Shown one piece after another: positions 6,019 through 35,591 of a stretch of 38,971 nt of DNA (positions within the stretch are counted from its first letter, which is position 1; each line of letters opens with the position of its first letter). The stretch is from a virus: positions 1 to 38,971 of IMG/VR virus record IMGVR_UViG_3300045391_003815. One strand, written 5' to 3'. The translations under genes were made by a program, and so were the position numbers. Below the pieces are notes generated by a model, which was not told the origin of the DNA, did not search any database, and was given only the letters and a program-made list of their open reading frames with translations.

Positions 6019-7215
6019 TCAGGTCGCGAGACCCGTCAAAACACCATGGAACGAGGGCGGGATGTACGCCTGGAGGTATCCACCATAGCGCGCATCGTAG
6101 GCGTCCTCGGTGCTAGACCGCAGGAACACCGTGCCGTCATCATCAAACCAGCCGAAGCCGGGGCGGTGATGAACTTCGATGTAGTTGTCGTTCAGGAAGT
6201 ACATGCGATCCGCGTCGCAGAACCGATCCGCGAACACACCCACAGGTCCAGCACTGGACATGAACTCAATCCCTCGGAAAGAGACCTTGCCCTTCAGCTC
6301 AGACGCACGGGGATCGATGATGTACTGCTTTTGATCCTCGAGCTGGTTTAAGAGCTTACGCAGCTGGGTATAAGACGTGATGATCAGGTTCGGCACCTTG
6401 CCGCACTGCTTCTCAACACCGAGCATGCACTCGTTCATCAGGTCAGGGCTGATGCCCGCGCTGGCCGCAGCCTTCTGGAAGGCTTGCCACCGGCGACCGA
6501 TGTTCACCGAGTATTTCGTGCTCGAGGTCGCATCCAAGACGCCTTTCAACCCTTCCGGGTCGTTGTTCTTGGAATTCTGCATGTAAATGCTGTGCGTTCC
6601 CGCACCGATCATCGTGAGGTCGTCTGAGCCGCTGATGCGGGCCAGGGTGACTACTCCCGTAGAAGCATTGACCGCAGTGATCTCCCACACAGACGACAGC
6701 GAGTTAACGTTGACGAAATCCTTCTCTTCGAAGTTCGCCTCATTGAACTTGTAGCTGCCCGTGGTGAGGATCGTGACTACCGGAGCCGTCGCCGTTCCGC
6801 TGGTGCTACCAGAGAACTGGCCGAGGATGCCAGTGCCATCGTTGAAGAGGATGCGAGACATATTGCGCATCCAAGACTCTACGGTCTTCTGCACAACGTG
6901 CTTGGTCAGGCGAACGAACGCGCCTTCATCGTCCTCAGCCGCCTTAGTGGCCTCACGGTCTACTTTACAGACCGCATAGACTTTCTTGGCGCTGATGACC
7001 GCATCTTCATAGTTCGCTTCATTGGCAGTGGGAAGCGAGCCGGAACCCACGCCGCCACCGAACGAGGTCGGGACAGCAACGTCCATGCGTTTGCCGGTAA
7101 ACTTATAAGATTTCTTGACGCGACCAAGCAGGACAGTTGCCGAGTTATACGTGTTGTCACTCAGCTTGCCGTACTTGATCTTAAATAGATTTGAGGCATC
7201 TGTTAAATCGTACAT
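6019..7215 (-). CDS. Major capsid protein (398 aa)
   Basis: Lies directly after the scaffold-like gene; GGAGG RBS 8 nt upstream of the ATG; size and composition typical of HK97-fold capsid proteins. Confidence 0.8.
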   Translation of the reverse strand: MYDLTDASNLFKIKYGKLSDNTYNSATVLLGRVKKSYKFTGKRMDVAVPTSFGGGVGSGSLPTANEANYEDAVISAKKVYAVCKVDREATKAAEDDEGAFVRLTKHVVQKTVESWMRNMSRILFNDGTGILGQFSGSTSGTATAPVVTILTTGSYKFNEANFEEKDFVNVNSLSSVWEITAVNASTGVVTLARISGSDDLTMIGAGTHSIYMQNSKNNDPEGLKGVLDATSSTKYSVNIGRRWQAFQKAAASAGISPDLMNECMLGVEKQCGKVPNLIITSYTQLRKLLNQLEDQKQYIIDPRASELKGKVSFRGIEFMSSAGPVGVFADRFCDADRMYFLNDNYIEVHHRPGFGWFDDDGTVFLRSSTEDAYDARYGGYLQAYIPPSFHGVLTGLAT

Positions 7216-10805: not shown

Positions 10806-11057
10806 TTATGCGATATTGTCTAGGTCGCCCATCATGTCAGTTTCTAATGCCTGCCTGAGCCGCTGGTTCACCTGCTTAAACTCCTGGACACCCTCTTCGC
10901 TGGTATCAGGGTTAAAAATGGTGAATTTATGCGTGGATTTTTCCATAGCGGTCAGTTTAATCCACAGCTTAGCATTCGAGACGCAGAGTATCACAGTTGT
11001 CACGCCCAAGCACAGAAGCAGGATGCCAAACGTCAATAGTACATACATCATATTCAT
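10806..11057 (-). CDS. Small membrane protein (83 aa) between terminase and portal
   Basis: N-terminal TM helix MYVLLTFGILLLCLGVTTVILCV; start overlaps the TerL stop by 4 nt. Confidence 0.55.
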   Translation of the reverse strand: MNMMYVLLTFGILLLCLGVTTVILCVSNAKLWIKLTAMEKSTHKFTIFNPDTSEEGVQEFKQVNQRLRQALETDMMGDLDNIA

Positions 11058-12439
11058 ATCTCCCTATAGTCACCCATGTTGGGGCAGCTGGGGCTACCCA
11101 ATTCGTCCATCATTCTCACACTGCGGAAGTTCTCATCGTCCTCTTCGCGGTACTCCCTGGTCTCCTCGAGCTGATAGTTCTGCGAGCCCAGTATGTACCT
11201 GAAGTCATCAATCAAATGGTCGTTCTTCTTGGGGATATTCCCGTTTTTATCCTTGAAATAGTTGTCTAGCTCCCAGAAGAACTTAACGCAGCGGTCAGAC
11301 ACCACCAGCTTCTGCTGGAGCATGATGTCTTTCATCAGGGTTAACCCCTCGCTCTTGTCATGGAGGTGCTTGTGGCTAGGCTCTAACCCCTCTTCAAAGT
11401 GGTCGTAGAACTCCTTTGCAAACCAGCTGGCCTGCTCGTCATACCCTTGGCGCCACTTGCGATCCCACAGCTCTTCTCGCTTATCCAGGGCACGCTGACC
11501 TATCTTCTTCACGGTCATCTGCGCCTGGTCAGTCTCATAGATCTCATCTAGCACATAGATCATCTTGGTAAAGGGATCTATGGCCACAAACAGTACAGCG
11601 AAGCAGCTGGAGGAAGCAGGATCTGCCCACCACACGAACATCAGCTTCTTCATCTTCTTCTTTAGGCTGGACATTATCTCTTCATGTGGCTTGACGAAGT
11701 CTTTAGAGAACATCGGGAAGATCTTCTGGCTGCCACCTGGCACAAACTTAGCTGCGTACTCACGCTCCCACGTGTCACCCTCGCCACGGAGGTAAAGGCG
11801 TCTCTTCTCATCCCAGAGCCAGTTGCGATCGACTGCAGGGTTCTGCCAGGTAGGCGCCTGGTAGAAGAGTTTGCCGGGCGTATTCCTATGCTCCTCTGCG
11901 GTTGCAGTGAATTCGCACTCGCGATCTGGTGGCGTACCCAGGAACAGCTCAGGGGCGTTAAAGACCGATAGGTTGGGTCGCATAATATTGCGAAACCTGG
12001 GGTCGTGGTCCTTGTACTCCTCATAGACTAGGATGCCAGGGCGGGTACCGCGATGTGCCTCAAAGTTATCGCTGCCATCTAGCTTGAGATAGCTACCGTT
12101 GATCAGCCGGATACGAGTCTCTGACTGATTCACGTCAGCAACCCAGTGCCTAGGGCCAAAGTTCAGGAGTCGAGGGTCTTCCCAGACGATCTTCTTACCC
12201 TGCTTTAGCTGTGGTGCTACATAGAAGCAGCCGATTCCAGGGAACGTCATCGCCCAGCGCCAGAGGCAGTAAATACCAAACTCAGTCTTACCCCACTTAC
12301 GGCCACACTGGACAAAGATGCTACGGATATCGTCAGAAAAGAGCGCGCTGCCGACATCTATCTGGCCAGGATGTGGCTTAAAGCGAGCGTGAAGCTCCTT
12401 CAGCACTGTGGCGTAGATGGCGGCAGCGTCTCTATTCAT
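11054..12439 (-). CDS. terL: Terminase large subunit (461 aa)
   Basis: Walker A-like CGRKWGKTEF, Walker B-like GILVYEEY, and nuclease-domain motif NDHLIDDFRYILG near the C-terminus. Confidence 0.92.
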   Translation of the reverse strand: MNRDAAAIYATVLKELHARFKPHPGQIDVGSALFSDDIRSIFVQCGRKWGKTEFGIYCLWRWAMTFPGIGCFYVAPQLKQGKKIVWEDPRLLNFGPRHWVADVNQSETRIRLINGSYLKLDGSDNFEAHRGTRPGILVYEEYKDHDPRFRNIMRPNLSVFNAPELFLGTPPDRECEFTATAEEHRNTPGKLFYQAPTWQNPAVDRNWLWDEKRRLYLRGEGDTWEREYAAKFVPGGSQKIFPMFSKDFVKPHEEIMSSLKKKMKKLMFVWWADPASSSCFAVLFVAIDPFTKMIYVLDEIYETDQAQMTVKKIGQRALDKREELWDRKWRQGYDEQASWFAKEFYDHFEEGLEPSHKHLHDKSEGLTLMKDIMLQQKLVVSDRCVKFFWELDNYFKDKNGNIPKKNDHLIDDFRYILGSQNYQLEETREYREEDDENFRSVRMMDELGSPSCPNMGDYREI

Positions 12440-12780
12440 TATCCGACGTGATTGGTCTCAGGGATTTGAGGTTTGTTCATGGCAATCTGGTAGCCCATAC
12501 GGATCACTTCATGCAGTGCATCGCGCTGCGACTCTACTATGAGAACGAGGCGGCGACTTATCTCAAGCTCTTTTTGCTGGATATCGATTTGCTTCTTAAG
12601 GAGGTCAATTGTCTGGGCTTGCTGCCTCCTGGTCCTCTCCAGGTCGTTGAGATTCGCCTCCATTTTCTCCACTACGCTCCAGGGCACTGAGGGCCTCCCG
12701 TCCGGCAGGTATGCCCCCTGAGGGTAGCACGTCTGGAAAGGGGTCTCCGCTTGTCGGCTGCTGCTCGCGTCGTCCTGCAC
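12439..12780 (-). CDS. Small coiled-coil protein coupled to terL (113 aa, or 74 aa from the internal ATG at 12663)
   Basis: Its TAA overlaps the terL ATG (TAATG). The helical heptad-like sequence is LERTRRQQAQTIDLLKKQIDIQQKELE. The 5' part overlaps the TerS-like ORF out of frame. Confidence 0.45.
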   Translation of the reverse strand: MQDDASSSRQAETPFQTCYPQGAYLPDGRPSVPWSVVEKMEANLNDLERTRRQQAQTIDLLKKQIDIQQKELEISRRLVLIVESQRDALHEVIRMGYQIAMNKPQIPETNHVG

Positions 12781-13312
12781 TGATTAGCTCCTTTACGGTC
12801 TTAGGCTCCCTGCGGAAGTAGTCACTTTCGATGACGTTCTTCATCTCCTGCAGGGAAAGGTTTGATAATCCTAGTATCTCTGTGGGCTTCTCTGCTGAGA
12901 GCCTGAATAACTTATCAACTTTTGTGATGATATCGGTAACACGCTGCGCATCCTCAAGGTCTAGTACCGAATTCTTGAGCGCCTCGAGGGAGTCCGCAAT
13001 GAGCGGTAAGCTGGCCCTATAGATTCGGTGCAGCTCACGTTTATTGGTATCAGCCAGCTCTTGGACAAGCTCTTCCTCACGCTTCTGGCGCTGGTGCTTC
13101 CACGTCTTTTCCTCAGGCATGTCCTGCCTGTCGGCGCGCTGCCTATACCCATGAACCCAGTGATGTATCGTCGAGGCCGATAACCCTGTCTCGTCTGCAA
13201 TTTTGCTGATCGAGTAATACTCAAAGTAGAGCGCCTTAGCTTTGGCCTTTAGGTGTGCTGGGACTCGTCTCGTGTGAATCTTTCCCTTCTTCTCTGTCGG
13301 CGAGTCTGACAA
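12605..13312 (-). CDS. Terminase small subunit-like HTH protein (235 aa)
   Basis: N-terminal HTH (YFEYYSISKIADETGLSASTIHHWVHG); sits immediately upstream of terL; low-complexity C-terminal tail. Confidence 0.6.
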   Translation of the reverse strand: MSDSPTEKKGKIHTRRVPAHLKAKAKALYFEYYSISKIADETGLSASTIHHWVHGYRQRADRQDMPEEKTWKHQRQKREEELVQELADTNKRELHRIYRASLPLIADSLEALKNSVLDLEDAQRVTDIITKVDKLFRLSAEKPTEILGLSNLSLQEMKNVIESDYFRREPKTVKELISAGRREQQPTSGDPFPDVLPSGGIPAGREALSALERSGENGGESQRPGEDQEAASPDN

Positions 13313-13919: not shown

Positions 13920-14828
13920 TTAGTTCACAATGATCATTTGGTCTGGGCCTGCATCAGCTTTAGGCTGCGGGGCACATTCCGCTTTATAGTCGATAAAGGC
14001 CGCTTCAGTGATGACATTGCCACCAGTGAATTTGTCGCCGAGTAAGTAGTAGCCCCAGCCAGCGTCACCCCACGACGTTCCCCAGGAGTTCTTGATGATC
14101 GCGTAGTCGCCAGCCTTGTGGCCGTGCTTCTCACCGCGTAACCAGCCGAACATCGCGTAGCAGTGATTCGTCGCGCCACCGCCGTTGTGCTCTACCCAGC
14201 CGCCATTTCCCAGCGCCGAGGCAGCGCCACAGACTTCGAGCGGACCATGCTCCATCAGAGCGCGCTTGATATCAGCCCAGCTCAGGTTGATAGTGCCGGT
14301 CTTCTCCGCTTTCTCGTGGTAGGGTCCGGTGTACTTGCATCTTTGCGTGACGCCTTTGTACGGATACTCAGACTCGTACACAGCGCCCAGCTTATGGAAC
14401 ACATCCACAGAGATATAGCCACCATTGCACGATCCGAAGCCAGAGCAATCGATGACAAACTGAGGAGACACGTTGATCTTGCTGTTGTCTCTCAGCGCTA
14501 CGACACCTTCCATGGCAGACTTAGCGCCTTGAGCCCAGCAGTCACCGCATTGTTGCTCAAACACTTTGCCAGCCAGGTTGCGGTAGTCGAGTTCCTCGGG
14601 CGGCTCCTCACCAGCGTGGGCGCCCAGGTCAGACGGGAAGAAGTAGGTCGTCTGGCCAGTCTCAGACTTCAGGGGCTTATAGCCAGTGTGGTACTTCTTG
14701 CCATTGATTTCGACGATATCGTACCCGAGCTTCTCATCTCGGTAGACTCTGCTCTCAGCGCGGCACAAGCCGGACTGCAGCAGCAGTAAGAAAAGCAAAC
14801 TACGCAGTATCATTTGATGTCCTTTCAT
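13920..14828 (-). CDS. Secreted papain-family (C1) cysteine protease (302 aa)
   Basis: Signal peptide ILRSLLFLLLLQSGLCRA. Catalytic motifs QQCGDCWAQG (Cys), NHCYAMFGW (His) and IIKNSWGTSWGDAGWGY (Asn/Trp). Confidence 0.85.
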   Translation of the reverse strand: MKGHQMILRSLLFLLLLQSGLCRAESRVYRDEKLGYDIVEINGKKYHTGYKPLKSETGQTTYFFPSDLGAHAGEEPPEELDYRNLAGKVFEQQCGDCWAQGAKSAMEGVVALRDNSKINVSPQFVIDCSGFGSCNGGYISVDVFHKLGAVYESEYPYKGVTQRCKYTGPYHEKAEKTGTINLSWADIKRALMEHGPLEVCGAASALGNGGWVEHNGGGATNHCYAMFGWLRGEKHGHKAGDYAIIKNSWGTSWGDAGWGYYLLGDKFTGGNVITEAAFIDYKAECAPQPKADAGPDQMIIVN

Positions 14829-15217: not shown

Positions 15218-15579
15218 TCTAGTTCCTCCAGGAACGCCCTAACGATACCCAGGAACACGTGGTCCTTGAGGCGTTCTTTGCTATTTAGCTGTTCATAAGG
15301 GACCAGACACGGGTGGGTCTTTGCTAGTAGATCCTTAGGGCCCACTGTCCAGCCGTCTTGTATCTTGCTGGCCATCCAGACTTCATGCAGCTGCTCAGCT
15401 GTGATGTCGGGTTTAGCCAGCACCAAGGATACACCAACGATGGCACTATTCTTAACCTCGAAGGGCGCCGAGTCCCACTCAGGCTGCATATCGACAGTAC
15501 CCCAGGCCCTAGCCCACTCGCGATTAGCGGCGTGGCACAGCCTGGCGATAGCTTCGATCAATTCGGGAGAGATCTTCAC
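15214..15579 (-). CDS. RyR-domain protein (121 aa)
   Basis: HEVWMASKIQDGWTVGPKDLLAKTHPCLVPYEQLNSKERLKD matches the bacterial/phage RyR-domain signature. Confidence 0.75.
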   Translation of the reverse strand: MKISPELIEAIARLCHAANREWARAWGTVDMQPEWDSAPFEVKNSAIVGVSLVLAKPDITAEQLHEVWMASKIQDGWTVGPKDLLAKTHPCLVPYEQLNSKERLKDHVFLGIVRAFLEELE

Positions 15580-16292
15580 TCACACACCGTCTGCAACGCA
15601 GTCTTGATTCCTTCTTGGATCGTAGCCTGCTCAGTTTGACTCCACTGTCCCACGGTCTTCGCCACGATATCACCATGGCAGTTCAGCACGTAAGTAGACG
15701 GGTAGCTAGTGGTGCCCAGCTTCTTGACCAGTTGCCGCTGGCTGTCTTTCAACACCGGATGATTCGGATGGTGCTTAGCAATCCAGTTAGAGTAGTCGCT
15801 GTCGTTACGGTCGATACCAACATCCAACACGACGACACGGGAGTTATCCTTGTAGCTGTCAGCGAGCGCTGCCACAGCAGGAGCATTCATGTTGCAGTAG
15901 GGGCAGGTATTGAAATACGCCTCCACTACCACAACTCCATTCTTGATGCTGTCGGTAGAAAAGACAGTGCCAGGCTGCTCAGCATTCATCTGCGGCAGCG
16001 AGACCGGCAGGATGCCAGAGAAGCGGTCAGGGATAATGACGCAGGAGCAGACCTGATCCAGTTTGCGGCACTGAGACGACTCAACACCCTTGGCATTTTT
16101 ACTGTGTCCCATCGACATGTAGTCCTTAGGACACATCGTTCCTTCAAACCATTCCGGGTCACCAAACTTCACCTTGCAGCTGCAGTCTTCAGTGACCGTA
16201 GGCTCAGTGCTAGAGGCACCAGCATCCGTACAGCCCGCACACATCAATAGGGCTAGAACTCCGAAACAGATCGCATAAATCAATCGAATCAT
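15576..16292 (-). CDS. Exported thioredoxin-fold (TlpA/redoxin-like) protein, probable lipoprotein (238 aa)
   Basis: Signal peptide ending LLMCAGC; Cys-rich linker; CPYC active site in VVVVEAYFNTCPYCNMNAP; AAGGAG RBS. Confidence 0.75.
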   Translation of the reverse strand: MIRLIYAICFGVLALLMCAGCTDAGASSTEPTVTEDCSCKVKFGDPEWFEGTMCPKDYMSMGHSKNAKGVESSQCRKLDQVCSCVIIPDRFSGILPVSLPQMNAEQPGTVFSTDSIKNGVVVVEAYFNTCPYCNMNAPAVAALADSYKDNSRVVVLDVGIDRNDSDYSNWIAKHHPNHPVLKDSQRQLVKKLGTTSYPSTYVLNCHGDIVAKTVGQWSQTEQATIQEGIKTALQTVCE

Positions 16293-19545: not shown

Positions 19546-19676
19546 TATACGCAGGCTGCAGATCGCCTCACGTGTGGGCTCTATAGGCTTGCAATACGGC
19601 TAGGGGGCTCTGGGGGCAGCGTGGCGTGGCGTATAAGGGGTATTATGGACGCTAGTGTGGGGGCTATAGGCGGGAC

Positions 19677-19719
19677 TAGGCAGGCAGGCCTGTATAGGCA
19701 GGCTAGGCAAGGCTAGGCA
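19677..19719. repeat. Four TAGGCA(G/A)G repeats just upstream of the AT-rich promoter core
   Basis: TAGGCA at 19677, 19695, 19704 and 19714. Confidence 0.8.
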
Positions 19720-19731
19720 GCGTCGTATAAT
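19704..19731 (+). promoter_or_regulatory. Candidate rightward early promoter
   Basis: TAGGCA (19704-19709), 16-nt spacer, TATAAT (19726-19731); the -35 is weak. Confidence 0.4.
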
Positions 19732-19754
19732 AGTTGCCATATATGTATTGTCAT
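19727..19754 (-). promoter_or_regulatory. Candidate leftward early promoter, sharing the AT-rich core with the rightward one
   Basis: On the minus strand: ATGACA (19754-19749), 16-nt spacer, TATTAT (19732-19727). Confidence 0.4.
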
Positions 19755-19974
19755 TCAGGCCGACGGTCTGGAGCTATACTGTGTATTTCTGCAACACTGC
19801 CCCGCCACACCAAGCCACGCCCCTATACCCTGCCTATATCCCGCCACACGTCTATAGCCTGTACAGTATTCCAGCCCCGCCCTGCCACGCCCCAGCCTTA
19901 ACGCCGTGTGGCACACGCCCTGCAATCTATATAGATCGCTAGGCGCTAGTGCCTAGCACACAATGGAGTTAACA

Positions 19975-20244
19975 ATGAGTATAAACATTCCAAGGCCACG
20001 CTATAGACGTACCCAAGAACAGGCTGCAGCCGTGTTCAAAGAGATCCATATGCATCTGCAGGACTGCTGCCTCGGTTGCGGCCACGATCCCAAAGCTGCG
20101 ACCGGCGGCCTGCAGCAACACCTAGATGCTGCTAGGCACACTGCGACTGCAATTCGCTATACCAAGCCTAACTCACGCTGCAGCTTTACAGTTGCATGCC
20201 CGCAGTGCGGCCTAGATAAGCTGTTCAGCGTGCTAGTCCCTTAA
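19975..20244 (+). CDS. Small zinc-ribbon-like early protein (about 89 aa from the second ATG)
   Basis: GGAG (19965-19968) lies 6 nt upstream of the ATG at 19975. The track start at 19963 lies inside the RBS. Contains CCLGCG...CPQCG. Confidence 0.6.
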   Translation: MSINIPRPRYRRTQEQAAAVFKEIHMHLQDCCLGCGHDPKAATGGLQQHLDAARHTATAIRYTKPNSRCSFTVACPQCGLDKLFSVLVP

Positions 20245-20272
20245 ATACCCTCAGCCCCTGCCACACCTCACA

Positions 20273-20311
20273 CGCCCTAGCGTCTATAAGGATGCTAGGG
20301 CGTTTTTCTTT
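20273..20311 (+). terminator. Rho-independent terminator
   Basis: 9-bp stem cgccctagc / gctagggcg, 12-nt loop, then tttttcttt. Confidence 0.75.
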
Positions 20312-20412
20312 ACTAGCCTGTTCTATACCGCCGTGCACAAATATTATCGTATCTAAGCTAGCGAAACGCTTTGTATTCTGCCTGTTCACTGTAACGCGCT
20401 CTATAATTCCTA

Positions 20413-20440
20413 TTGCAACGCAGTGCAGCGCTGATATAAT
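20413..20440 (+). promoter_or_regulatory. Sigma-70-type promoter with extended -10
   Basis: TTGCAA (20413-20418), 16-nt spacer, TGaTATAAT (20432-20440). Confidence 0.65.
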
Positions 20441-20520
20441 CAGCACTAGGTACCCCACGGTGTGGTGCTTAGCGTGGTGCTAGGCACTATACCGGGGGGC
20501 ACAAAACAATGGAGTTAACA

Positions 20521-21159
20521 ATGAGTAAAGTTAAAGCTAAGGCCAAAGCGGCCAAACGTCCCAAGACCGTAACCCTAACCCAGGACGCGTTAGACGCGTT
20601 GATCGCTAAGGCTAGCGGTATTCAGCAGGTACCGGCCACGGCGCCTGTAGTCGAAGCGCCTAAGCCTGTAGTTGAGGCTAAGCCCGAAGCCACGGTTAAT
20701 ACCGTGCCTACGCAGGTACCGTATACTGACAAGGGCGCCCTAGCCGCACACCTTGCTAAGGCGCGCGCTGCTAAGGCAACTAAGGATCAACAGATCAAGC
20801 GCTATAAAGAGCTAGGCATTATCCCTGAGGATGCAGTGCTTAGCATGCAAGGTCTCAAGATCCTGAATGAGATAATGCAGCTAGCGGATCGCAACGGCAG
20901 CCCTGTTCTCGGCGTAGACCAACTCAAGCGCCTCAAGGGCTTAGTTGTAACAATAGGCAGCCTAGAGCAACGCCTTGAGGTGTGTGAGAAAGCCCTTAGC
21001 CTAGTGTTGCCACTGACGGTCTCTAGACCGCGTCAGATCGTGAAAGAGATAGAGCGTCCTGCTAAGCCACAGCGGGCGGCGCGTGTGGAAGAGCCCGAGA
21101 TTGAGACCGAGCCTAGCGATAATGCTAGCACGTCTTTCTGGGGATCTCTGTTCAAGTAA
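20521..21159 (+). CDS. Early protein, Lys/Ala-rich N-terminal half (about 212 aa from the second ATG)
   Basis: Has the same acaatGGAGttaacaATGagta initiation cassette as the gene at 19975. Confidence 0.65.
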   Translation: MSKVKAKAKAAKRPKTVTLTQDALDALIAKASGIQQVPATAPVVEAPKPVVEAKPEATVNTVPTQVPYTDKGALAAHLAKARAAKATKDQQIKRYKELGIIPEDAVLSMQGLKILNEIMQLADRNGSPVLGVDQLKRLKGLVVTIGSLEQRLEVCEKALSLVLPLTVSRPRQIVKEIERPAKPQRAARVEEPEIETEPSDNASTSFWGSLFK

Positions 21160-21253
21160 CACTCACACTGGAATGTACAGGCACTAGCCCGCGACTAGCT
21201 TGCTAGCCGGGCTAGGCATACGGCGTATGCCAAAAGCCTGTTAACTCCAGGCT

Positions 21254-21318
21254 AGAGCCCTAAACAACGCACTGCGGTACCGAATACCCCTAGGCGTTGT
21301 TTAGGGCTCTTTTGTTTT
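21254..21318 (+). terminator. Strong rho-independent terminator
   Basis: Perfect 17-bp stem agagccctaaacaacgc / gcgttgtttagggctct, 23-nt loop, then tttgtttt; two smaller hairpins precede it at 21184-21231. Confidence 0.75.
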
Positions 21319-21325
21319 ATGGGGT

Positions 21326-21548
21326 ACCCTAACCCATGCCCCCGCCCCCGCCGACGCCCTATATCCAATCCTGGACGCTATACCGCCCCGTTCTAACCCG
21401 CCCCACGGCCTATATCGCCCTATACCGCGTCCCGTCCCCCCGTCCCTGCAGCTGCCACGTCCGACTAGCCGCGTCCCCGTTGCCTTAGCGGGCTAGCCCT
21501 GATCGTTTGATCAAAGTGTTGACGGACGCCCCGCCCCGCCCTATACCC
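21326..21548 (+). repeat. C-rich, G-poor tract with repeated CCCGCCCC and C(C/G)CTATA(T/C)C units
   Basis: CTATA units at 21357-21366, 21377-21384, 21409-21416, 21418-21426 and 21539-21548, all in the same orientation. Confidence 0.8.
21519..21547 (+). promoter_or_regulatory. Candidate promoter for the downstream early genes
   Basis: TTGACG (21519-21524), 17-nt spacer, TATACC (21542-21547); preceded by palindrome tttgatcaaa carrying two GATC sites; the -10 is weak. Confidence 0.4.
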
Positions 21549-21736
21549 GACTAGCGCGCTGTTTATATCAGCGCGGGTACCATGCCGATAAGGGGGCCCT
21601 TCGGACGTCCGGGGGGCCCCTGATACGTGCCCGTAGATCGGGGCTAGGGCTGTTGCGGGTATTCCCACACTCTACGTCCCGTTTAGTTGAGGGGCCCGCT
21701 AGTTCAGGTGAACAGGCTCTAGTCCCGATCTAGGGA

Positions 21737-22083
21737 TACGTGGCTTTATAGCAGGGTATTAGGCGCGTAGCTGCATAGAGGGTCTAGGTACGTGGCCCCC
21801 TATTGTGTGGCTGTTGTGGCCACTGCCTAGTGCCCTGCTATATACGCACGTGTCTAGAGCGCTGCTATAGGCTTGCTTGTTTCCCACTGTGTAGCTCCCC
21901 TACACAGACTGATGGCCCATAGCAGCGCTATAGGTATGTACGTTGTGTACGTGGCCTATAGATCCCCACGGCAGAGTACGTGTACGTAGCTCATCCGGCG
22001 ATTAAACAACACTGGGTGCTGGTTCGGGTTGGTGTACGTGTGCTCTGTACGTGGGCTGTTCTTTGACAATGGAGGTGTACGTG
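21737..22083 (+). repeat. Iteron-like array of (G)TACGT(G/T/A) motifs, all in one orientation
   Basis: Copies at 21737, 21788, 21938, 21947, 21976, 21982, 22034, 22047 and 22077, of which six are exact GTACGTG. CACGTG also occurs at 21847 and TACGTG at 21624. Confidence 0.85.
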
Positions 22084-22437
22084 AAGACTCAACGAAAGGG
22101 TTTGCACATGGTCTGCATAGGGGACATGGCCGTTGCTGAGCTACACGGCAGCCAGATCTGTACGTTTAATCGTAGAGAAAGGCTGCTGATGATAGGGCAC
22201 TTTGGCTGGCCCACAGCTAGTACCGCTAAGGCGATCAACGCTTTTTTCGAGCGGTACGAGATCAGGGGCAGAGCCTATAAGCGTGGTGAAAACGTGTACG
22301 TGGATATAGAGGGTTGCTGCAAGGAATTCACTCTGGCAGCTAGCCCTGCAATCCTGGATCTGGATGAGTATCAGATCCCTGAGTGCACAGTGTACTGGCC
22401 TACGAAAAAGGACGGCTTGGAGGTGGGCAATGGCTGA
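22069..22437 (+). CDS. Hypothetical early protein (about 122 aa; start at ATG 22069 or GTG 22081)
   Basis: GGAGG (22071-22075) lies 5 nt upstream of the GTG at 22081; contains IGHFGWPTASTAKAINAF. Confidence 0.55.
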   Translation: MEVYVKTQRKGLHMVCIGDMAVAELHGSQICTFNRRERLLMIGHFGWPTASTAKAINAFFERYEIRGRAYKRGENVYVDIEGCCKEFTLAASPAILDLDEYQIPECTVYWPTKKDGLEVGNG

Positions 22438-22699
22438 CTACCAAGCTGTACTAGCTGACGTAGAGTCAGGGACTAGCGTTAAAGAGGCTGTGCTCAAGCA
22501 CGGCGGTAGCGTGGGCTCGTACTACGCCTGGAAGTCTAAGCAAAAGGCTGGCAAGCCTAAGACTAGGAAACCCAAGGTAACTACCCTGGAACTACCCGGT
22601 CTTGGCCTGTCTGGCCCTAGCCTGGAGATCCGTGGTGAGCCTGAGTCTCTAGCTAGCTTCCTAGTGTTCCTAGGCAAGAAGCTAGGGGGTGGGCAATGA
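22430..22699 (+). CDS. IS66 Orf1 (TnpA)-like HTH protein (89 aa)
   Basis: GGAGG lies 6 nt upstream of the ATG at 22430, and the ATG overlaps the upstream stop. N-terminal HTH is GTSVKEAVLKHGGSVGSYYAWKSK. C-terminal TLELPGLGLSGPSLEIRGEPESLASFLVFL resembles the IS66 Orf1 C-terminal pattern. Confidence 0.5.
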   Translation: MADYQAVLADVESGTSVKEAVLKHGGSVGSYYAWKSKQKAGKPKTRKPKVTTLELPGLGLSGPSLEIRGEPESLASFLVFLGKKLGGGQ

Positions 22700-22920
22700 A
22701 CGATAGGCCACGGTATAGCCGTACTCTCAAGTCATCATCCTACTCAATCTGGTACAACAACACTGCCGTAGGTATCACCATCAACGCGGTAGGCGATGCC
22801 TTAACCGTCAGCTGGCATGAGTGTTTCGAAGACGGTACCCACAGCCCTGATACGCCTTGGTCTGAGCTAAACGATGACCAAAAGCTAACAGTGCTTAAGA
22901 CAGTCTGGAGACACGCATGA
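22696..22920 (+). CDS. Hypothetical protein (74 aa)
   Basis: 4-nt overlaps with both neighbours; shares the initiation string ggtgggcaATG with the previous gene. Confidence 0.55.
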   Translation: MNDRPRYSRTLKSSSYSIWYNNTAVGITINAVGDALTVSWHECFEDGTHSPDTPWSELNDDQKLTVLKTVWRHA

Positions 22921-23258
22921 CACGACTGATCCGCATCTTCCAGGATGCTGACCTACGCTGCAGTGACCTAGGTCTAACTGAGCTAGCTGAAAAGGCTAAG
23001 ATCAAGACTGACGAATTGCAGCCAGGCGAGATCCTGATCTTCGTCAACGTCAAGGCTACCATGGTGAAAGTGCTAGCTAACTCTGGCTATGGGCTTGTCT
23101 ACGCTGGCTATCGCAGTCAGCACGGCAGGCTGGAGCGCAGAGCGCTGAAGCACATTCCCGCTGCTTTCGGTGGTGGAGTGATCAACTATGACAAGGCACT
23201 AGCTGCAACCCTAGAAGAACTTCTTCCTGACAAGAAACGCCGATCAGACAAACCCTAG
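22917..23258 (+). CDS. IS66 Orf2 (TnpB)-like protein (113 aa)
   Basis: Size and the pattern DLRCSDLGLTELA...LQPGEILIFVNVKATMVKVLANSGYGLVYAGYR resemble IS66 Orf2 (DMR..gLa...P.sGhlFvF.nrr.d.lKvL.wd..G). Confidence 0.45.
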   Translation: MTRLIRIFQDADLRCSDLGLTELAEKAKIKTDELQPGEILIFVNVKATMVKVLANSGYGLVYAGYRSQHGRLERRALKHIPAAFGGGVINYDKALAATLEELLPDKKRRSDKP

Positions 23259-23348
23259 ATTCAGACAAGGCGGCGTTCCTTCTTGTCCAGCCTGGCCCCG
23301 TTTTCTCCTCTGGGGCCGGGCTGTTCTACCTCCATATTAACTGAAAGG

Positions 23349-23645
23349 ATGTACGTGGTGAAAATTCAAATTGAGGTTTCTGAGAAGAACGAAGGCACTG
23401 AATCTCCCTGGTGGATGATTGTTGAACCGCTCAGAGGCAGTAGCAGGAAGGCTGAAAGCGTAGCTCACTGCATCACAGGCCCGTTCTTTAGCAGGGAAGC
23501 TGCTGAGAGGGAGCTGCAGTCTAGAAGCTATGATTATCACAAGGACGCCATCGTTTGGTGTGCCTCTGGATATCACTCAGGTCAATACAAGCTAGCCTTA
23601 CGTTCTGAAAAAGCAGCACAAGAATTGAATCGCTTCGGTCAGTGA
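23349..23645 (+). CDS. Hypothetical protein (98 aa from the ATG at 23349)
   Basis: The track start at 23283 is a TTG inside a hairpin region; the ATG at 23349 is preceded by gaaagg; contains SPWWMIVEP...GPFFSREAAE. Confidence 0.55.
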   Translation: MYVVKIQIEVSEKNEGTESPWWMIVEPLRGSSRKAESVAHCITGPFFSREAAERELQSRSYDYHKDAIVWCASGYHSGQYKLALRSEKAAQELNRFGQ

Positions 23646-23888
23646 CTCACCGTGATGATGCTCTTTGGCAGGCTTGCTGCTGACAGAGCTATCCCCCTAC
23701 CCCCTTACTACTATTCCCTGGGTTACTGCCCTGTGTGGCCAGCTTATTTGCGTTTGCTGTGCCGTTCTCTGCAGCCAATCAAGCGATAGCCAGTAAGCTA
23801 CTTGCCTCCATACCCCTGTGAGTCGCTGGAGGGTCTCTGCTGCACGTCATGCTCCCCGTATAGGATGCCACTGACCACGCTGCGTCTA

Positions 23889-23918
23889 TTGACGCTCTGT
23901 TACAGTGCACTTTATAGC
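23889..23918 (+). promoter_or_regulatory. Candidate orphan promoter inside the 566-nt ORF-poor gap
   Basis: TTGACG (23889-23894), 18-nt spacer, TATAGC (23913-23918); the -10 is weak. Confidence 0.35.
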
Positions 23919-23924
23919 CCCACT

Positions 23925-24125
23925 GTGAGCATGCGTGACTGCTCTTATCCAGGGCTGTTTGTGTTCAGAAAGAACGCTACTATCTTTGCAGAAGATGTGT
24001 TGTGAGATCAATAGAAATCTTTTACACTGCCTTTTGATCCCGTCCAAAAACAGAAGAACAACTTTAGAATATATTCACCCCCTGGTACCACTGCCCTAGT
24101 GCTCTACCAGGGGATTTTTCTTTTT
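23925..24125 (+). ncRNA. Candidate non-coding transcript of about 200 nt, ending at a strong intrinsic terminator
   Basis: No RBS-preceded ORF lies between the candidate promoter and the terminator. The only ATG ORF is 24 codons with no SD, and the 67-aa track ORF uses a TTG with no RBS. Confidence 0.3.
24079..24125 (+). terminator. Rho-independent terminator
   Basis: 9-bp stem cccctggta / taccagggg, 17-nt loop, then atttttcttttt. Confidence 0.8.
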
Positions 24126-24141
24126 GTCGCCGCACTGTGTG

Positions 24142-24169
24142 TTGACCTCTGCTGTGTCGCCTATACAAT
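24142..24169 (+). promoter_or_regulatory. Sigma-70-type promoter for the replication/recombination genes
   Basis: TTGACC (24142-24147), 16-nt spacer, TACAAT (24164-24169). Confidence 0.6.
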
Positions 24170-24211
24170 CAGCCCAATCATTAACCAAAACCACTATACA
24201 AAGGACACACA

Positions 24212-25144
24212 ATGTCATTCACAGTACGCAAGGCTGTACGGAAAAATCTGCCACTGAAGATTGGGATCTCTGGCCTCTCTGGCTCTGGCAAGACCTACTC
24301 CGCCCTGCTCCTGGCCAAAGGCCTGGCAGGTACCGGAAAGGTAGCCGTACTAGACACCGAGAATAGACGCAGCGAATACTATGCTGACGTTACTGACTTC
24401 GACATCGTGCCGTTCGCCGAGCCCTATAGCCCTGACCGCTACGTCCAGGCCATCAAGCAGCTCGAGAAGGAATACGCTGTCATTATCATCGACTCAGCCA
24501 GTCATGAGTGGGATGGCATTGGTGGCTGCCTGGATATGAGTAAGGCTAAGGGTGGTAAGTTCCAGGACTGGGGTATCATTAGCCCGCTCCACAAGAAATT
24601 CACTGATGCCTTGCTAGGCTCCCCTGCCCACATCATTGCTACTGTGCGCCAAAAGAAGGAATTCAGCATGGGCGAGGGCAACAACGGTAGGACCAAGGTG
24701 GAGGCTGTAGGCACGAAGCTGGTACAGCGTGACAACTTCGAGTACGAGTTTGCCGTGCTGTTCGAAGTGCAGATGAACCACAAGGCCCTAGCCAGCAAGG
24801 ACAACACTAGACTGTTCACCACTGAGGTGCCGTTCACTCTTGATGAACAGACAGGGATTAGGCTGCGTGAGTGGAACGAGAAGGGCCAGGTGGCGCCTAA
24901 GACCCAGGAGATCCCTGGCACTAACACTGCAGTGACCACCATCAGCGAGGCACAAGCTAAGAAGCTTTGGGCTGTAGCCAAGGAGCACAAGTGGTCTACC
25001 GATGAGGTGAAGTGGCTATTGTCAAAGTACAAGGTCACACAGTCTTCTGAGATCCGCTGGGATGAGTTTGATGGCGTCCTGGCCTGGCTCGAGATGGGCT
25101 ACCAGAAGGCCTTTGCTCAGTCACAACAGAGAGCCAACAGTTAG
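24212..25144 (+). CDS. Sak4-like / AAA_24-type RecA-fold ATPase (310 aa)
   Basis: Walker A ISGLSGSGKTYSALLLA, then VLDTENRRSEYY, and Walker B-like VIIIDSASHEWDG. Confidence 0.8.
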   Translation: MSFTVRKAVRKNLPLKIGISGLSGSGKTYSALLLAKGLAGTGKVAVLDTENRRSEYYADVTDFDIVPFAEPYSPDRYVQAIKQLEKEYAVIIIDSASHEWDGIGGCLDMSKAKGGKFQDWGIISPLHKKFTDALLGSPAHIIATVRQKKEFSMGEGNNGRTKVEAVGTKLVQRDNFEYEFAVLFEVQMNHKALASKDNTRLFTTEVPFTLDEQTGIRLREWNEKGQVAPKTQEIPGTNTAVTTISEAQAKKLWAVAKEHKWSTDEVKWLLSKYKVTQSSEIRWDEFDGVLAWLEMGYQKAFAQSQQRANS

Positions 25145-25254
25145 GACGAAAGTCCTATAGGGGCGCTGAGGAACCCCAAATCCCCAGTGTGGTTACTCCA
25201 TTGGCCACACATCCCATGATCCTCCCTCAGCGCCCCGAAAATTTTAGGAGCACT

Positions 25255-25830
25255 ATGACACCGACACAGAAAGTAGTTGCAGACGCTATAGCCGCCATCG
25301 TGAGGCAGAACGATCAGCTGATCAAAATCCTGAGTGAACTCGCCCTGCCCTCACGCCCTGGCCCCAGTGAGTGTGTTATCGACGAGCCTGCGAACGCTAC
25401 CAGCGCCGAGCCTATTGAGAATGGTCCCACTGCGCTGGTGCCTATCGTCGATAAGCAGCCAGAGCAATCAGCCCGGCCTAAGCGCAAGAAGTCTGATGGT
25501 CGTGGTATCCCTGTTTGGGATTCCTACAACTCAGCCTATGAGGAGCGTTACCAGATTTACCCAGTAAGGAATGCGATGACTAACCGCATCTGCTCCCAGT
25601 TGGCTGATAGACTAGGGGAAGACGCGAGGCACGTTATTCGATTCTATGTGAAGCACAACGACTTCTTCTACGTGAAGAACGCACACGCTATCCAGTACGC
25701 CTTGAAGGATGCAGAGAAGCTGCACATGGAATGGTCACGTGGCCGTGCCGTCACTACTGCCGATGCCAGACTGGAAGAGCGCAAGGGCCACAATGCTAAC
25801 GTAGTCCAGCAGGTGCTAGAGAATGCCTAG
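25255..25830 (+). CDS. Hypothetical replication-module protein (191 aa from the ATG at 25255)
   Basis: AGGAG lies 4 nt upstream of the ATG at 25255; the track start at 25189 is a GTG without an RBS; conserved-looking C-terminal domain VWDSYNSAYEERYQIYPVRN... Confidence 0.55.
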   Translation: MTPTQKVVADAIAAIVRQNDQLIKILSELALPSRPGPSECVIDEPANATSAEPIENGPTALVPIVDKQPEQSARPKRKKSDGRGIPVWDSYNSAYEERYQIYPVRNAMTNRICSQLADRLGEDARHVIRFYVKHNDFFYVKNAHAIQYALKDAEKLHMEWSRGRAVTTADARLEERKGHNANVVQQVLENA

Positions 25831-26032
25831 CTGTATCGGTTGTGGTGCCAAGGAGACGAGCTACGATCCATGCACTTGTCCGCCGCCTTGCGATAGGTGT
25901 GACGAACTGGCTGAACGCTTAGCTCTAGCAGACAAGATTCTAGATCTACTCACTGCCTACAATGTAGGAATGAGTTTTCTATCTGAGGAACGAGTAGCAC
26001 CGCTATGGGAGGCCTACCATGGAAAGAGCTGA
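25823..26032 (+). CDS. Small Cys-rich protein (69 aa)
   Basis: CIGCG...CTCPPPCDRC; overlaps both neighbours. Confidence 0.5.
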   Translation: MPSCIGCGAKETSYDPCTCPPPCDRCDELAERLALADKILDLLTAYNVGMSFLSEERVAPLWEAYHGKS

Positions 26033-26585
26033 CTTTTTGAAACGCCTCGCCGTGCTGGCTGATCTCTGTAGCAAGGATTTGTCGCCTGACCTCATCAGGC
26101 TATATGATCACCTTCTTGCTAAGGACTACAGCTATGACCAGCTCTGCGTTGCCATAGAGCAGATCATCCTAGACCGTAAGGATCGTGATCCGTTCCCTAG
26201 CCCCAGGACTGTACTGGATAAGCTACGCCCTCCTGTTGACGACGATGCACTAGCCATCGAGGCTGCAAGCAGAGTGATAGGAGCTATATCCAAGTTTGGT
26301 TACTGTAACCCTTCTGAGGCCTGCGAGTATATCGGGGAACTTGGTTGGGCTATTGTTGACCGAGAAGGGGGCTGGGTGGCGTTATGCGAAAAAGTAGAAA
26401 GTAGACAGCTACCGGCGCTGCGCGCGCAGTGGCGGGATCTGGCTAAGAGTATACTTTTACGTGCAAGGGATGCGGACAACACGCCACCCGGTCTCCCAGC
26501 TGGTACCCCCAAGCCTAGCCTACCCACTGGGGTACAGCGCATAGGGGCTGGCATCGCCAGGAGCCTGCCGCCAGGGGACCTGTGA
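26019..26585 (+). CDS. Possible replicative-helicase loader (G39P-like) protein (188 aa)
   Basis: N-terminal pattern FLKRLAVLADLC...LIRLYDHLLAKDYSYDQLCVAIEQII...DPFPSPRTVLDKL resembles phage helicase-loader N-domains; the call is tentative. Confidence 0.4.
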   Translation: MERADFLKRLAVLADLCSKDLSPDLIRLYDHLLAKDYSYDQLCVAIEQIILDRKDRDPFPSPRTVLDKLRPPVDDDALAIEAASRVIGAISKFGYCNPSEACEYIGELGWAIVDREGGWVALCEKVESRQLPALRAQWRDLAKSILLRARDADNTPPGLPAGTPKPSLPTGVQRIGAGIARSLPPGDL

Positions 26586-26818
26586 AGATCTACGCTAAGT
26601 TTATTTCTGCCGATGGGCTAACGAAGGTGGAGCGCATACCTGGAATAACGCAGTTCTACTTCAGGGCTGGAACGTTCCCGCTAGACCATTACCGTATGTG
26701 CATTGACGCCACTGAAGAACCGCCGAGGCCCGCCATCGTTAAGCGGCGCTATGAGCTATGTGGCGTCAGGAACTATAGCGATACCCAGGTAGCTACCTAC
26801 AGAGAAGTCTATGGCTGA
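26582..26818 (+). CDS. Hypothetical small protein (78 aa)
   Basis: The GTG start overlaps the upstream TGA (GTGA). Confidence 0.5.
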   Translation: MKIYAKFISADGLTKVERIPGITQFYFRAGTFPLDHYRMCIDATEEPPRPAIVKRRYELCGVRNYSDTQVATYREVYG

Positions 26819-27068
26819 TCCCAATCTCATCCAGGTCGCCTACCGGGACATAGTGGAGTCACATGAGGCCGGGATGCCCACGCCGCCACGCTGCTGGGTC
26901 CATAGCTCTGCGGAGTTCTCTGCCTGTAGGTTGCAGCGCATGCTGGCCGAGAAGGGGATTGGGTTGGTGGTGGAGGTGGATGATAGCTTCCCTGCTAATT
27001 GCCTGTGGTTTGTTCCGTTAGAGGCTGTGAAGGAAATGATTGAAAAGGAGGAATGGGGTGAAGCTTGA
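26811..27068 (+). CDS. Hypothetical small protein (85 aa)
   Basis: The ATG overlaps the upstream ORF end by 8 nt. Confidence 0.55.
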   Translation: MADPNLIQVAYRDIVESHEAGMPTPPRCWVHSSAEFSACRLQRMLAEKGIGLVVEVDDSFPANCLWFVPLEAVKEMIEKEEWGEA

Positions 27069-27282
27069 GACTAGGACTTGTGACTGCGGCTGTGGATCTA
27101 CTTACCGCTGCCTGCCTACCTCTACTGCCCGCTATGCTGGCCAGGACCATGAGCGCAGGGCGTTAGACAATGGCATGGCTATCTATCGCCGCCGTATCGC
27201 TGGGGCTCGAGGCCGCCCTAGCAAGAAGGCTATAGCAGCGCGCCAGGAAGTCATAGAGGACGAATTCGGCTACGTGGAGTAG
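27058..27282 (+). CDS. Hypothetical small basic Cys-containing protein (74 aa from the GTG at 27058)
   Basis: AAGGAGG (27045-27051) lies 6 nt upstream of the GTG at 27058; contains CDCGCG...YRC. Confidence 0.5.
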   Translation: MKLETRTCDCGCGSTYRCLPTSTARYAGQDHERRALDNGMAIYRRRIAGARGRPSKKAIAARQEVIEDEFGYVE

Positions 27283-27318
27283 TTGCTGATAGCAGCAGCA
27301 CTGCGTTAGTTTAGCCCC

Positions 27319-27624
27319 ATGAAAGTTTCTAGAAAACCTGTCGTTGATGTGAAGAGAATCTACCAAGCCCTAGGCCGCCGTCTCAAGACGTATCGCATAG
27401 CCAATGGGTTGTCCCAGCGCGACATCGGCGAACTCCTGAATATGAGCCGAGCTAGTGCAGGGCTAATAGAGCAAGGCCGCCAGAGGATCTCTCTGCACGA
27501 CGCTATCATCATTGCCACCCTGCTGGACTTCCGCCTGGATACTCTGCAGCCAGAGACTGGGATTGCTGATGTGAGGGAGTGGGTTAGTAAGAAGCTACAC
27601 GGCTCTAGGTCAAAGCGTGCTTGA
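27319..27624 (+). CDS. XRE-family HTH regulator (101 aa)
   Basis: LKTYRIANGLSQRDIGELLNMSRASAGLIEQGRQRISL. Confidence 0.75.
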   Translation: MKVSRKPVVDVKRIYQALGRRLKTYRIANGLSQRDIGELLNMSRASAGLIEQGRQRISLHDAIIIATLLDFRLDTLQPETGIADVREWVSKKLHGSRSKRA

Positions 27625-35310: not shown

Positions 35311-35591
35311 TCTGTATCTCCATCGACGATGCCAGTCCCTGTGGATCTCACAATAATCCGTCTAGTGGGGATGCTACCGTCTCGAAATCCGTTTCTAATC
35401 GCTAGCTCGCTGCTAGCTGGGATAGTGCCTGACCATTCAAAGGACTCAAAGTTATTGATGAGGTCAAGCTTGCTAAGCCCGTTGCGCAGCTCTCGTACTA
35501 GCGAGGCAAGCTCTTTACCGAGATACCGTGCCACCACGTCTAGGCTTGCACTGGCTGTCTCTTTGAACTCGGTGAAGTTTGCGAATTTCAT
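35235..35591 (-). CDS. Hypothetical virion protein (118 aa)
   Basis: 4-nt overlap with the upstream nozzle-like gene. Confidence 0.55.
   Translation of the reverse strand: MKFANFTEFKETASASLDVVARYLGKELASLVRELRNGLSKLDLINNFESFEWSGTIPASSELAIRNGFRDGSIPTRRIIVRSTGTGIVDGDTEWTSNYVYLKNTVASAVTATVIFLK

Follow-up and report, generated by a model that had tools for sequence, protein, structure and literature searches.

The word array and its departure from chance

Here we ask why one short word, GTACGTG, is repeated on a single strand of the long non-coding region ahead of an early/middle operon (22081-23258) in IMG/VR virus record IMGVR_UViG_3300045391_003815, and whether this word is read on DNA or on RNA. 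All coordinates refer to the 38,971-nucleotide stretch of that record that was analyzed, which we call the window. The array is a real, conserved and unusual element of an uncultivated podovirus clade. We favor, but hold only tentatively, the reading that it belongs to a structured 5′ leader RNA in which the word would act as a recognition or pairing module for post-transcriptional control. The copies of the word, and sites related to it, are as follows.

21788, 21947, 21976, 22034, 22047, 22077, 22296 and 23351, + strand: starts of exact GTACGTG
2227, + strand, and 35896, - strand: exact GTACGTG elsewhere in the window
21737, 21789, 21939, 21948, 21977, 21983, 22035, 22048 and 22078, + strand: the nine copies of TACGT in 21737-22083
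21624, + strand: TACGTG
21847: CACGTG

The first-pass annotation of this DNA, which was made from the letters alone, had described a one-strand array in 21737-22083, and the six exact GTACGTG and nine TACGT found there, all on the + strand, bear this out, as do the related sites at 21624 and 21847 and the further copy at 22296. It had also stated that several copies are extended; extended copies do exist, but only two of them (21788 and 21947) read GTACGTGGCC. Copy 22047 reads GTACGTGGGC, and a GTACGTT lies in-frame in the first gene at 22160. A logo built from 36 copies in three lineages, GTGTACGTGG (G-T-G-TACGT-G-G), gives a unit of 8-10 nt. The copies are irregularly spaced from start to start (6, 13, 30, 43-48 and 88 nt), and the array stretches over about 700 bp, coding sequence included, without overlapping a promoter.

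The claim that such clustering exceeds chance is also upheld. Specifically, GTACGTG has 10 matches window-wide as compared with 3.0 ± 1.9 in shuffles. No other 7-mer of the genome, on either strand, clusters as tightly as TGTACGT, of which 7 copies fit into 300 bp. Across 300 dinucleotide shuffles the best cluster of any 7-mer had 3 copies (251 shuffles), 4 (44), 5 (4) or 6 (1), and never 7. The most strand-biased 7-mers of the early region are likewise GTACGTG (8:0), TGTACGT (9:0) and TACGTGG (7:0). Outside of the cluster TACGTG shows no strand bias, with 5 copies versus 5 in the genome.

Conservation of the array in a small clade of relatives

Relatives were recovered by protein searches, which identified a small clade (L001-L007) in sewage-type metagenome assemblies. 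The 118-aa product flanking the array is 57-64% identical to that of the window in L001-L006 and L007, and a distant clade member, L074, has proteins that are 30-36% identical. All of L001-L007 carry the same non-coding region ahead of the same operon, with 7-15 GTACGTG and none on the opposite strand; sense:antisense counts are 8:0 in the early region of the window, 15:0 in L001 and 7-14:0 in L002-L007. Operon synteny is retained throughout L001-L007 and also in L074, minus a 74-aa gene. The first-pass annotation had pointed to relatives as a place to look for the motif, and there, in the only relatives recovered, the array is conserved and expanded (12-15 copies), with about half of the synonymous sites changed.

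Copy number and position of the word vary by lineage, tandem 6-nt GTACGTGTACGTG duplications differ, and one copy found in the others is missing from L007. Identity between lineages is 74-84% over the 100 nt that precede the start codon, as compared with 51-53% at third codon positions, and the ~60 nt closest to the start codon do not differ at all between the window and L001. Because these upstream nucleotides are more conserved than third codon positions, we judge the leader element to be under selection. Within the first gene, copy 22296 lies in the codons AAC GTG TAC GTG GAT, which are identical in three lineages, whereas the codon is kept for only about 60% of conserved residues. An extra in-gene copy in L001 (7408) lies in a different reading frame from 22296, and since in-gene copies thus occupy two frames the word is not imposed by the protein sequence. 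L074 retains the operon and a folded leader yet TACGTG is wholly absent from it. A candidate 'equivalent word' in L074, CTGGCAG, was discarded as it is dispersed in coding sequence and is probably a codon effect.

Broader searches were negative. A nucleotide search with 21100-23700 against 50,697 phage records gave no match, two neighboring proteins found nothing in IMG/VR, the exact start-site 24-mer is absent from IMG/VR and from JGI metagenome contigs, and a scan of 185,579 species genomes with an AAA_24 alignment returned no relative above 45% identity. A literature search on the word gave only noise from eukaryotic hypoxia elements and primers. When IMG/VR was scanned for three TGTACGTG within 30 nt of each other, 61 loci were found, nearly all of which are tandem or coding repeats; a GC-rich locus among those considered (L062) has the word antisense to its genes and was set aside as unrelated. 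A few of the loci are arrays of palindromic sites; the unrelated viral contigs L027 and L040, for instance, carry arrays of CACGTACA-N4-6-TGTACGTG that are ~20-30 nt apart, and these look like a classical dimer-operator or iteron array with the same core.

Anatomy of the proposed leader region and of the start sites

The region from 21254 to 22083, together with a second start site downstream, is composed of the following features.

21254-21320, + strand: intrinsic terminator of the upstream gene (20521-21159), with 26-nt arms and a T-run (inverted repeat I3)
21320-21500, + strand: C-rich, G-poor tract (C 48%, G 20%) with CGTCCC and CCTATA(T/C)C words
21502-21546, + strand: GATC/TTTGATCAAA palindrome and candidate weak sigma-70 promoter TTGACG-17-TATACC (promoter 21518-21546)
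21555-21621, + strand: two small hairpins, CGCGCTG/CAGCGCG and GGGGGCCCTTCGG/CCGGGGGGCCCCT, minimum-free-energy helices at the predicted leader 5′ end
21624-21742, + strand: long hairpin I4, with TACGTG at both bounds (21624 and 21737)
21734-21855, + strand: long hairpin I1 (alignment helix 2), with GTACGTG 21788 in the apical loop
21844-21943, + strand: long hairpin I2 (helix 5), 36 pairs
21930-21959, + strand: small hairpin of two word copies (21938 and 21947)
21965-22055, + strand: hairpin P-C (helix 7), -44.8 kcal/mol, 24 pairs
22053-22083, + strand: GGGCTGTTCTTTGACAATGGAGG-TGTAC-GTG, comprising a U-rich tail, a Shine-Dalgarno (SD) sequence and a word copy that includes GTG start 22081
23293-23357, + strand: second module copy, with hairpin GGCCCC..GGGGCC, GGGCTGTTCT and AAGGA-TGTAC-GTG

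The two start sites share an SD-TGTAC-GTG layout (22071-22083 and 23345-23357). At the first of these, GGGCTGTTCTTTGACAATGGAGG-TGTAC-GTG does not differ among the window, L001 and L002, and L007 has a near-identical sequence. The gene after the array most likely begins at GTG 22081 (GGAGG-TGTAC-GTG), from which the genes of the relatives are called, and not at ATG 22069. The copy that the first-pass annotation had noted over the downstream start codon spans 23351-23357 and includes a probable GTG start at 23355, which lies 5 nt behind AAGGA. At both sites GGGCTGTTCT follows a hairpin (22053-22064 and 23318-23329) and lies 15-30 nt ahead of the SD-TGTAC-GTG start, and this block appears to be a duplicated regulatory module.

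The word is also built into the hairpins. Both arms of P-C are made of word copies (21976 and 21982 on one side, 22034 and 22047 on the other), and its helix is 99% paired in three lineages. In both the window and L001, a terminator-like call covers the upper part of P-C together with GGCTGTTCTT. Helix 5 is 95% paired across the 5 sequences aligned and has 6 pairs with compensating changes, hairpin I4 contains 21 Watson-Crick pairs, 5 G·U and 1 A·C, and neighboring long hairpins have an ACGT junction in common. Most word copies are paired in lower stems, and 21788 alone sits in an apical loop.

Upstream of the hairpins, a terminator-like site was called at 21288-21306 and the 21254-21320 block is conserved in L001 and L002, which also keep the CGCGCTG/CAGCGCG hairpin. 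The C-rich tract is unstructured (fold z-score about 0) and looks like a Rho-utilization (rut) site. Similar C-rich tracts are found at 19790-19930 and, in L001, at 5100-5260 and 6330-6470, in or before the leaders of two early units, and CGTCCC has a strand bias of 13:1 in the genome. At the position of the palindrome and candidate promoter, L001 and L002 keep TTGATC-N4-GATCAA and TTGAC(C/G)-17/18-TAAAAC amid a diverged stretch. TTGATC/GATCAA palindromes adjoin promoter-like TTGAC hexamers at 21506 (TTTGATCAAA), at about 6515-6545 in L001 and at 24006-24039, where GATCAA-N21-TTGATC sits upstream of a promoter at 24142; as a group these palindromes are probably the operator of an early regulator.

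The leader region contains no conserved open reading frame, and the window gave no match at gathering score to Rfam 15. A mir-10 match on hairpin 21621-21746 reached 26 bits against a gathering score of 47.5 and was dismissed as a chance hairpin match. Between 19550 and 22000, the non-coding DNA of the early region is enriched in the palindrome CTATAG(G/C) and in CTAGGC words (e.g. 19581, 19664, 19852, 21865, 21928 and 21956); 7 of the 20 genomic CTATAG copies are within 19.5-22 kb, often 2-4 nt after a GTACGTGG copy.

A conserved fold that favors the + strand

The leader folds far better than its shuffles, with z-scores of -7.7 (window) and -8 to -9.6 (L001/L002). An alignment of five sequences from three independent lineages gave a consensus structure of 134 pairs that is 93.9% paired. 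Compensating changes are present at 11 of these pairs, a number that none of 500 column shuffles matched (4.3 ± 1.6) and that exceeds the 2-5 of slid controls, and most of this signal is in helices 5 and 7.

Stem imperfections on the + strand are of a particular kind, with 20 G·U versus 3 A·C in hand-aligned stems. Predicted folds of three lineages likewise contain 23, 28 and 12 G·U pairs on the + strand versus 4, 5 and 4 on the - strand, and one-sided changes between lineages are of the type GC<->GU and AU<->GU. Moreover, the word occupies both hairpin arms in the same orientation and pairs through wobbles, with its perfect complement, CACGTA, never used. Because the arms pair by wobble instead of by CACGTA, it is the word itself that is kept and not pairing alone.

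The inverted repeats are significant on both strands, so the case for RNA rests on the G·U asymmetry. We did not retain the strand energy gap (-268 vs -213 kcal/mol) as proof of RNA, given that - strand shuffles are also weaker and that the - strand has z = -9.8. The conserved pairs, the G·U excess and the presence of the same word on both arms nevertheless indicate that selection acts on the + strand in single-stranded form and that the word is retained in its own right. A messenger RNA leader is the simplest reading of this selected + strand, since + is the sense strand of the operon, and a displaced + strand of single-stranded DNA is the alternative.

A structured 5′ leader as the favored reading

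We propose that the array is part of a ~0.5-0.75 kb structured, non-coding 5′ leader of operon 22081-23258 that would be transcribed on the + strand. This leader would fold into three or four long hairpins whose lower stems are made of oriented (G)UGUACGUG(G), with word copies pairing mutually in the RNA through an ACGU core and flanking U·G wobbles. The same word would provide the spacer and the GUG start codon of two genes. It may be read on the RNA by a protein or by other copies of the word, and could in this way couple folding or processing of the leader to translation or stability of early messages. RNase III would be expected to cut stems of 24-36 bp. A role at the RNA level is suggested because SD-TGTAC-GTG is present at two genes, because the array has strict sense polarity and because the word lies in stems beside a ribosome-binding site.

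Several points weigh against this leader reading. The sole promoter candidate in the region, TTGACG-17-TATACC, lacks the final (-7) T of its -10 element and was not called by the promoter scan, so that transcription may need read-through of the 21254-21320 terminator or an activator. An RNA-binding protein was not identified, and the modeled first gene product has no counterpart among solved folds. The neighboring helix-turn-helix (HTH) protein could instead bind the word on DNA. With three independent lineages only, the covariation is thin. The - strand is also significant when folded (z = -9.8 with RNA parameters, -4.9 with DNA parameters), and part of the G·U asymmetry comes from the T...G flanks of the word itself. 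Finally, two specific mechanisms were rejected: pairing of an upstream word copy that would sequester the start site, for which the predicted partner differs between lineages, and a terminator/antiterminator switch, for which no structure competing with hairpin P-C was found.

A bolder form of the leader idea, to which we give only an outside chance, is that the leader exemplifies a new kind of large structured RNA in phages, one that acts in trans once processed, either as a multivalent decoy for a host RNA-binding protein, ribonuclease or defense sensor or by pairing with the word at two early start sites. If such start-site pairing were true, one self-complementary word of 8-10 nt would be regulator and target both.

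Genome setting and neighboring genes

Since bases 1-30 recur exactly at 38942-38971, we take the window to be a complete, circularly closed genome assembly of 38,941 bp. Its - strand carries late and structural genes. An unusual feature of the early block (+ strand, 19963-27624) is that four of its non-coding stretches are long (19546-19962, 20245-20508, 21160-22068 and 23646-24211). The genes of interest are as follows.

6019-7215, - strand: major head protein
11054-12439, - strand: large terminase TerL
12605-13312, - strand: small terminase TerS
35588-38098, - strand: tail or lysis-type protein
38102-38908, - strand: SU10-adaptor-like protein
22081-22437, + strand: first operon gene, 118 aa, beta-rich
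22430-22699, + strand: HTH_Tnp_1-like protein (profile match)
Between the 22430-22699 and 22917-23258 genes, + strand: 74-aa protein, an operon member
22917-23258, + strand: IS66 TnpB-like protein (weak match)
23355-23645, + strand: 96-aa gene, probable GTG start 23355

No polymerase, primase or helicase was recognized among the proteins scanned, which agrees with the first-pass description of a genome without a polymerase. Searches of Pfam, PHROGs and NCBIfam gave no match to Rep, DnaA, O-protein, helicase or primase in the array-adjacent products, several of which are without an assigned function. The same annotation had placed the array upstream of the recombination genes; this is true of their order, but these genes begin 2.1 kb farther downstream, past the second non-coding region, and the immediate genes are different ones. 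That second region (23646-24211; 8513-9120 in L001) is also long, conserved and pyrimidine-rich, lies directly upstream of an AAA_24/Sak4-like gene, and holds lowest-GC windows of the early region as well as a good promoter, TTGACC-16-TACAAT (24142-24169).

The structure model of the 118-aa first gene product is beta-rich (pLDDT 77) and matched no fold in the PDB, two replication-region proteins had no match among PDB sequences, and no tRNAs were found in the window. The HTH_Tnp_1-like gene and the weak IS66 TnpB (Orf2)-like gene are retained as a pair clade-wide, including in the distant relative (L074 731-1376), and no transposase is present; the literature on IS66 TnpB provided no functional lead. 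Two different early genes begin with the translation-initiation block ACAATGGAGTTAACAATGAGTA (19960-19981 and 20506-20527), both reading MELTMS from the first ATG, and a third (22066-22075) uses ACAATGGAGG as its initiation block. Elsewhere, the - strand block encodes a papain-family peptidase (Peptidase_C1, E = 4e-28; 13920-14828) and a redoxin/AhpC-like protein (15576-16292), and L001 additionally carries Lar-like, RyR-domain and weak Acb2/Tad1-like genes at 614-2312.

Alternative readings of the array

The first-pass annotation had offered two functions for the array, a binding field for an early regulator and an origin of replication. The former survives as plausible, although we rate it as rather unlikely: the words would form direct repeats to which an early regulator, for instance the HTH_Tnp_1-like product of 22430-22699, binds head to tail on double-stranded DNA, thereby repressing, blocking or remodeling transcription of the operon and of the 23355 gene, and the hairpins would be a separate matter. 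Small phage regulators that use direct-repeat arrays include P2 Cox, 186 Apl and lambda Xis. The 8-10-nt logo has the size of a typical protein site, an HTH protein is encoded in the operon, and the copies turn over and multiply between lineages with their orientation retained. Loss of the word in L074 together with divergence of its proteins also fits co-evolution of site and binder. However, the irregular spacing is out of helical phase, and the ~700 bp spread includes coding sequence and overlaps no promoter. Such an array also leaves unexplained the identical register over two GTG starts and the presence of the word on both conserved hairpin arms at a cost of wobble pairs, and it makes the sense orientation a coincidence. 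Sense-strand RNA is more probably the form that is read, given this orientation, the conserved hairpins with G·U far exceeding A·C and the register over two GTG starts.

It is improbable, in our estimate, that the hairpins alone are functional, as RNase III sites or as stabilizers of early messages, with the word being a stem block that was spread by slippage (GTACGT-GTACGT) and by duplication of a hairpin plus start site. The lineage-dependent number of tandem 6-nt GTACGTGTACGTG duplications and the double occurrence of the GGGCTGTTCT...SD-TGTAC-GTG block are what this idea would predict, and alternating purine-pyrimidine words do pair in several registers, such that controls slid by ±2 are still 54% paired. 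It does not account for copies in the apical loop (21788) and in two frames of coding sequence (22296 and L001 7408), nor for the synonymous sites of the in-gene copy being frozen in three lineages. Furthermore, the word copy in helix 2 of L001 pairs with a non-word partner, and the opposite arm never uses the perfect complement.

The second proposal of the first-pass annotation, a replication origin, fares worse, and we regard it as quite improbable. The array would then consist of iterons for an unrecognized initiator, or the + strand hairpins would signal initiation or priming on displaced, single-stranded DNA. A long non-coding stretch of the early region does contain both direct repeats and GATC clusters (21502 and 21510), the strand-specific hairpins fold with DNA parameters too (z = -6.5), and the lack of a recognized polymerase or initiator in the scanned proteins would imply recruitment of host machinery. 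In iteron origins the direct repeats usually measure about 17-22 bp, seldom 8 bp, and are spaced regularly and in helical phase. The unit here is short (8-10 nt) and irregularly spaced in comparison with usual iterons, and no initiator, helicase or primase gene is recognized adjacent to it. An AT-rich unwinding element is also absent: the region is 55-58% GC, none of the 50-nt windows in 21160-22080 falls below 40% GC, and the eight lowest-GC windows of the early region are located at 19958-20547, 23334-24225 and 25932. On composition, 23646-24211, just upstream of the AAA_24 recombination gene, is the better candidate, the early region being richest in AT at 23334-24225. An origin also leaves the start-codon copies unexplained, and the word is absent from L074 despite the retained gene module.

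Last, it is very improbable that the word is an orientation-dependent host signal, either Chi-like, protecting replicating or packaged DNA ends from RecBCD/AddAB, or a terminase pac array. As a strictly oriented 7-8-mer the word has the format of known Chi sites, and clustering would raise the probability of recognition; Chi sites are oriented 5-8-mers that would be over-represented and skewed in the host genome. TACGTG has no strand bias outside of the cluster, the hairpin and start-codon contexts are unexplained, and the terminase genes are 9 kb away, which speaks against a pac site.

Significance and comparison with known systems

Long non-coding regions are rare in small phage genomes, and this phage devotes about 900 bp to one. 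If the word is read on RNA, then one self-pairing word would build a structure and also mark the start codons that are controlled, a leader design that to our knowledge has not been described for phage early regulation. If it is read on DNA, the word would define the operator bound by an early regulator of this uncultivated group of podoviruses. In both cases, a short word with strict polarity and natural copy-number variants is a testable handle on early gene control in a sparsely annotated phage lineage.

Among known systems, iteron origins such as lambda ori and P4 ori/crr, with its 8-bp type I repeats, resemble the array in having several short same-strand copies in an early region and partly within a gene. 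They differ in that the array has no AT-rich region, regular spacing or recognized initiator gene and has hairpins that are specific to the sense strand. P2 Cox boxes and the sites of 186 Apl and lambda Xis are likewise oriented, of 7-13 bp, and present in multiple head-to-tail copies near an early control region; in those systems neighboring sites are separated by about a helical turn and coincide with promoters or att sites, whereas these copies are irregular over 700 bp.

Reiterated RNA motifs provide a closer parallel. The GGA of CsrB/RsmZ, the (G/U)AG of TRAP and the T4 gene 32 leader have many copies of a short motif on one RNA, with one overlapping the SD or start. In the present case the motif is mostly in stems and not in loops or single strands, GGA is inconsistent, and the binder is putative. 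CsrB/RsmZ-type sponges display their motif in loops or single-stranded segments, and here only 21788 is in an apical loop. The P1/P7 immI region (c4 antisense RNA and the ant/icd leader) similarly has short sequences, in a structured RNA that is cut from the same transcript, with complementarity to the ribosome-binding region of a downstream gene. Unlike in immI, the 'antisense' and 'target' would here be the same self-pairing word, pairing over 6-9 bp with wobbles.

Phage early leaders that are processed by RNase III are represented by the lambda N leader and the T7 early RNAs, in which RNase III acts on long stems. The element resembles the lambda N leader and T7 R0.3-R1.1 in its long sense hairpins, which have stems of at least 20 bp and are located in the early region, downstream of a candidate promoter and just before the ribosome-binding site of the first early gene. 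Unlike in these leaders, the hairpins are built from one reiterated, oriented word that is also present in two start sites, and processing is predicted. No nut, boxA or boxB element could be demonstrated. A boxA-like TGTTCTTTGACAA at 22057-22069 was discarded: it has 2 mismatches, and with four equally good matches in the genome it is no better than chance. Three features expected of a structured leader are present: a conserved structure with compensating changes, specificity for the sense strand, and constraint that exceeds that of synonymous sites and reaches the SD and start. The element belongs to no named family, and in its probable working it comes closest to a combination of two known things, a structured phage early leader that is processed and an operator with a reiterated motif.

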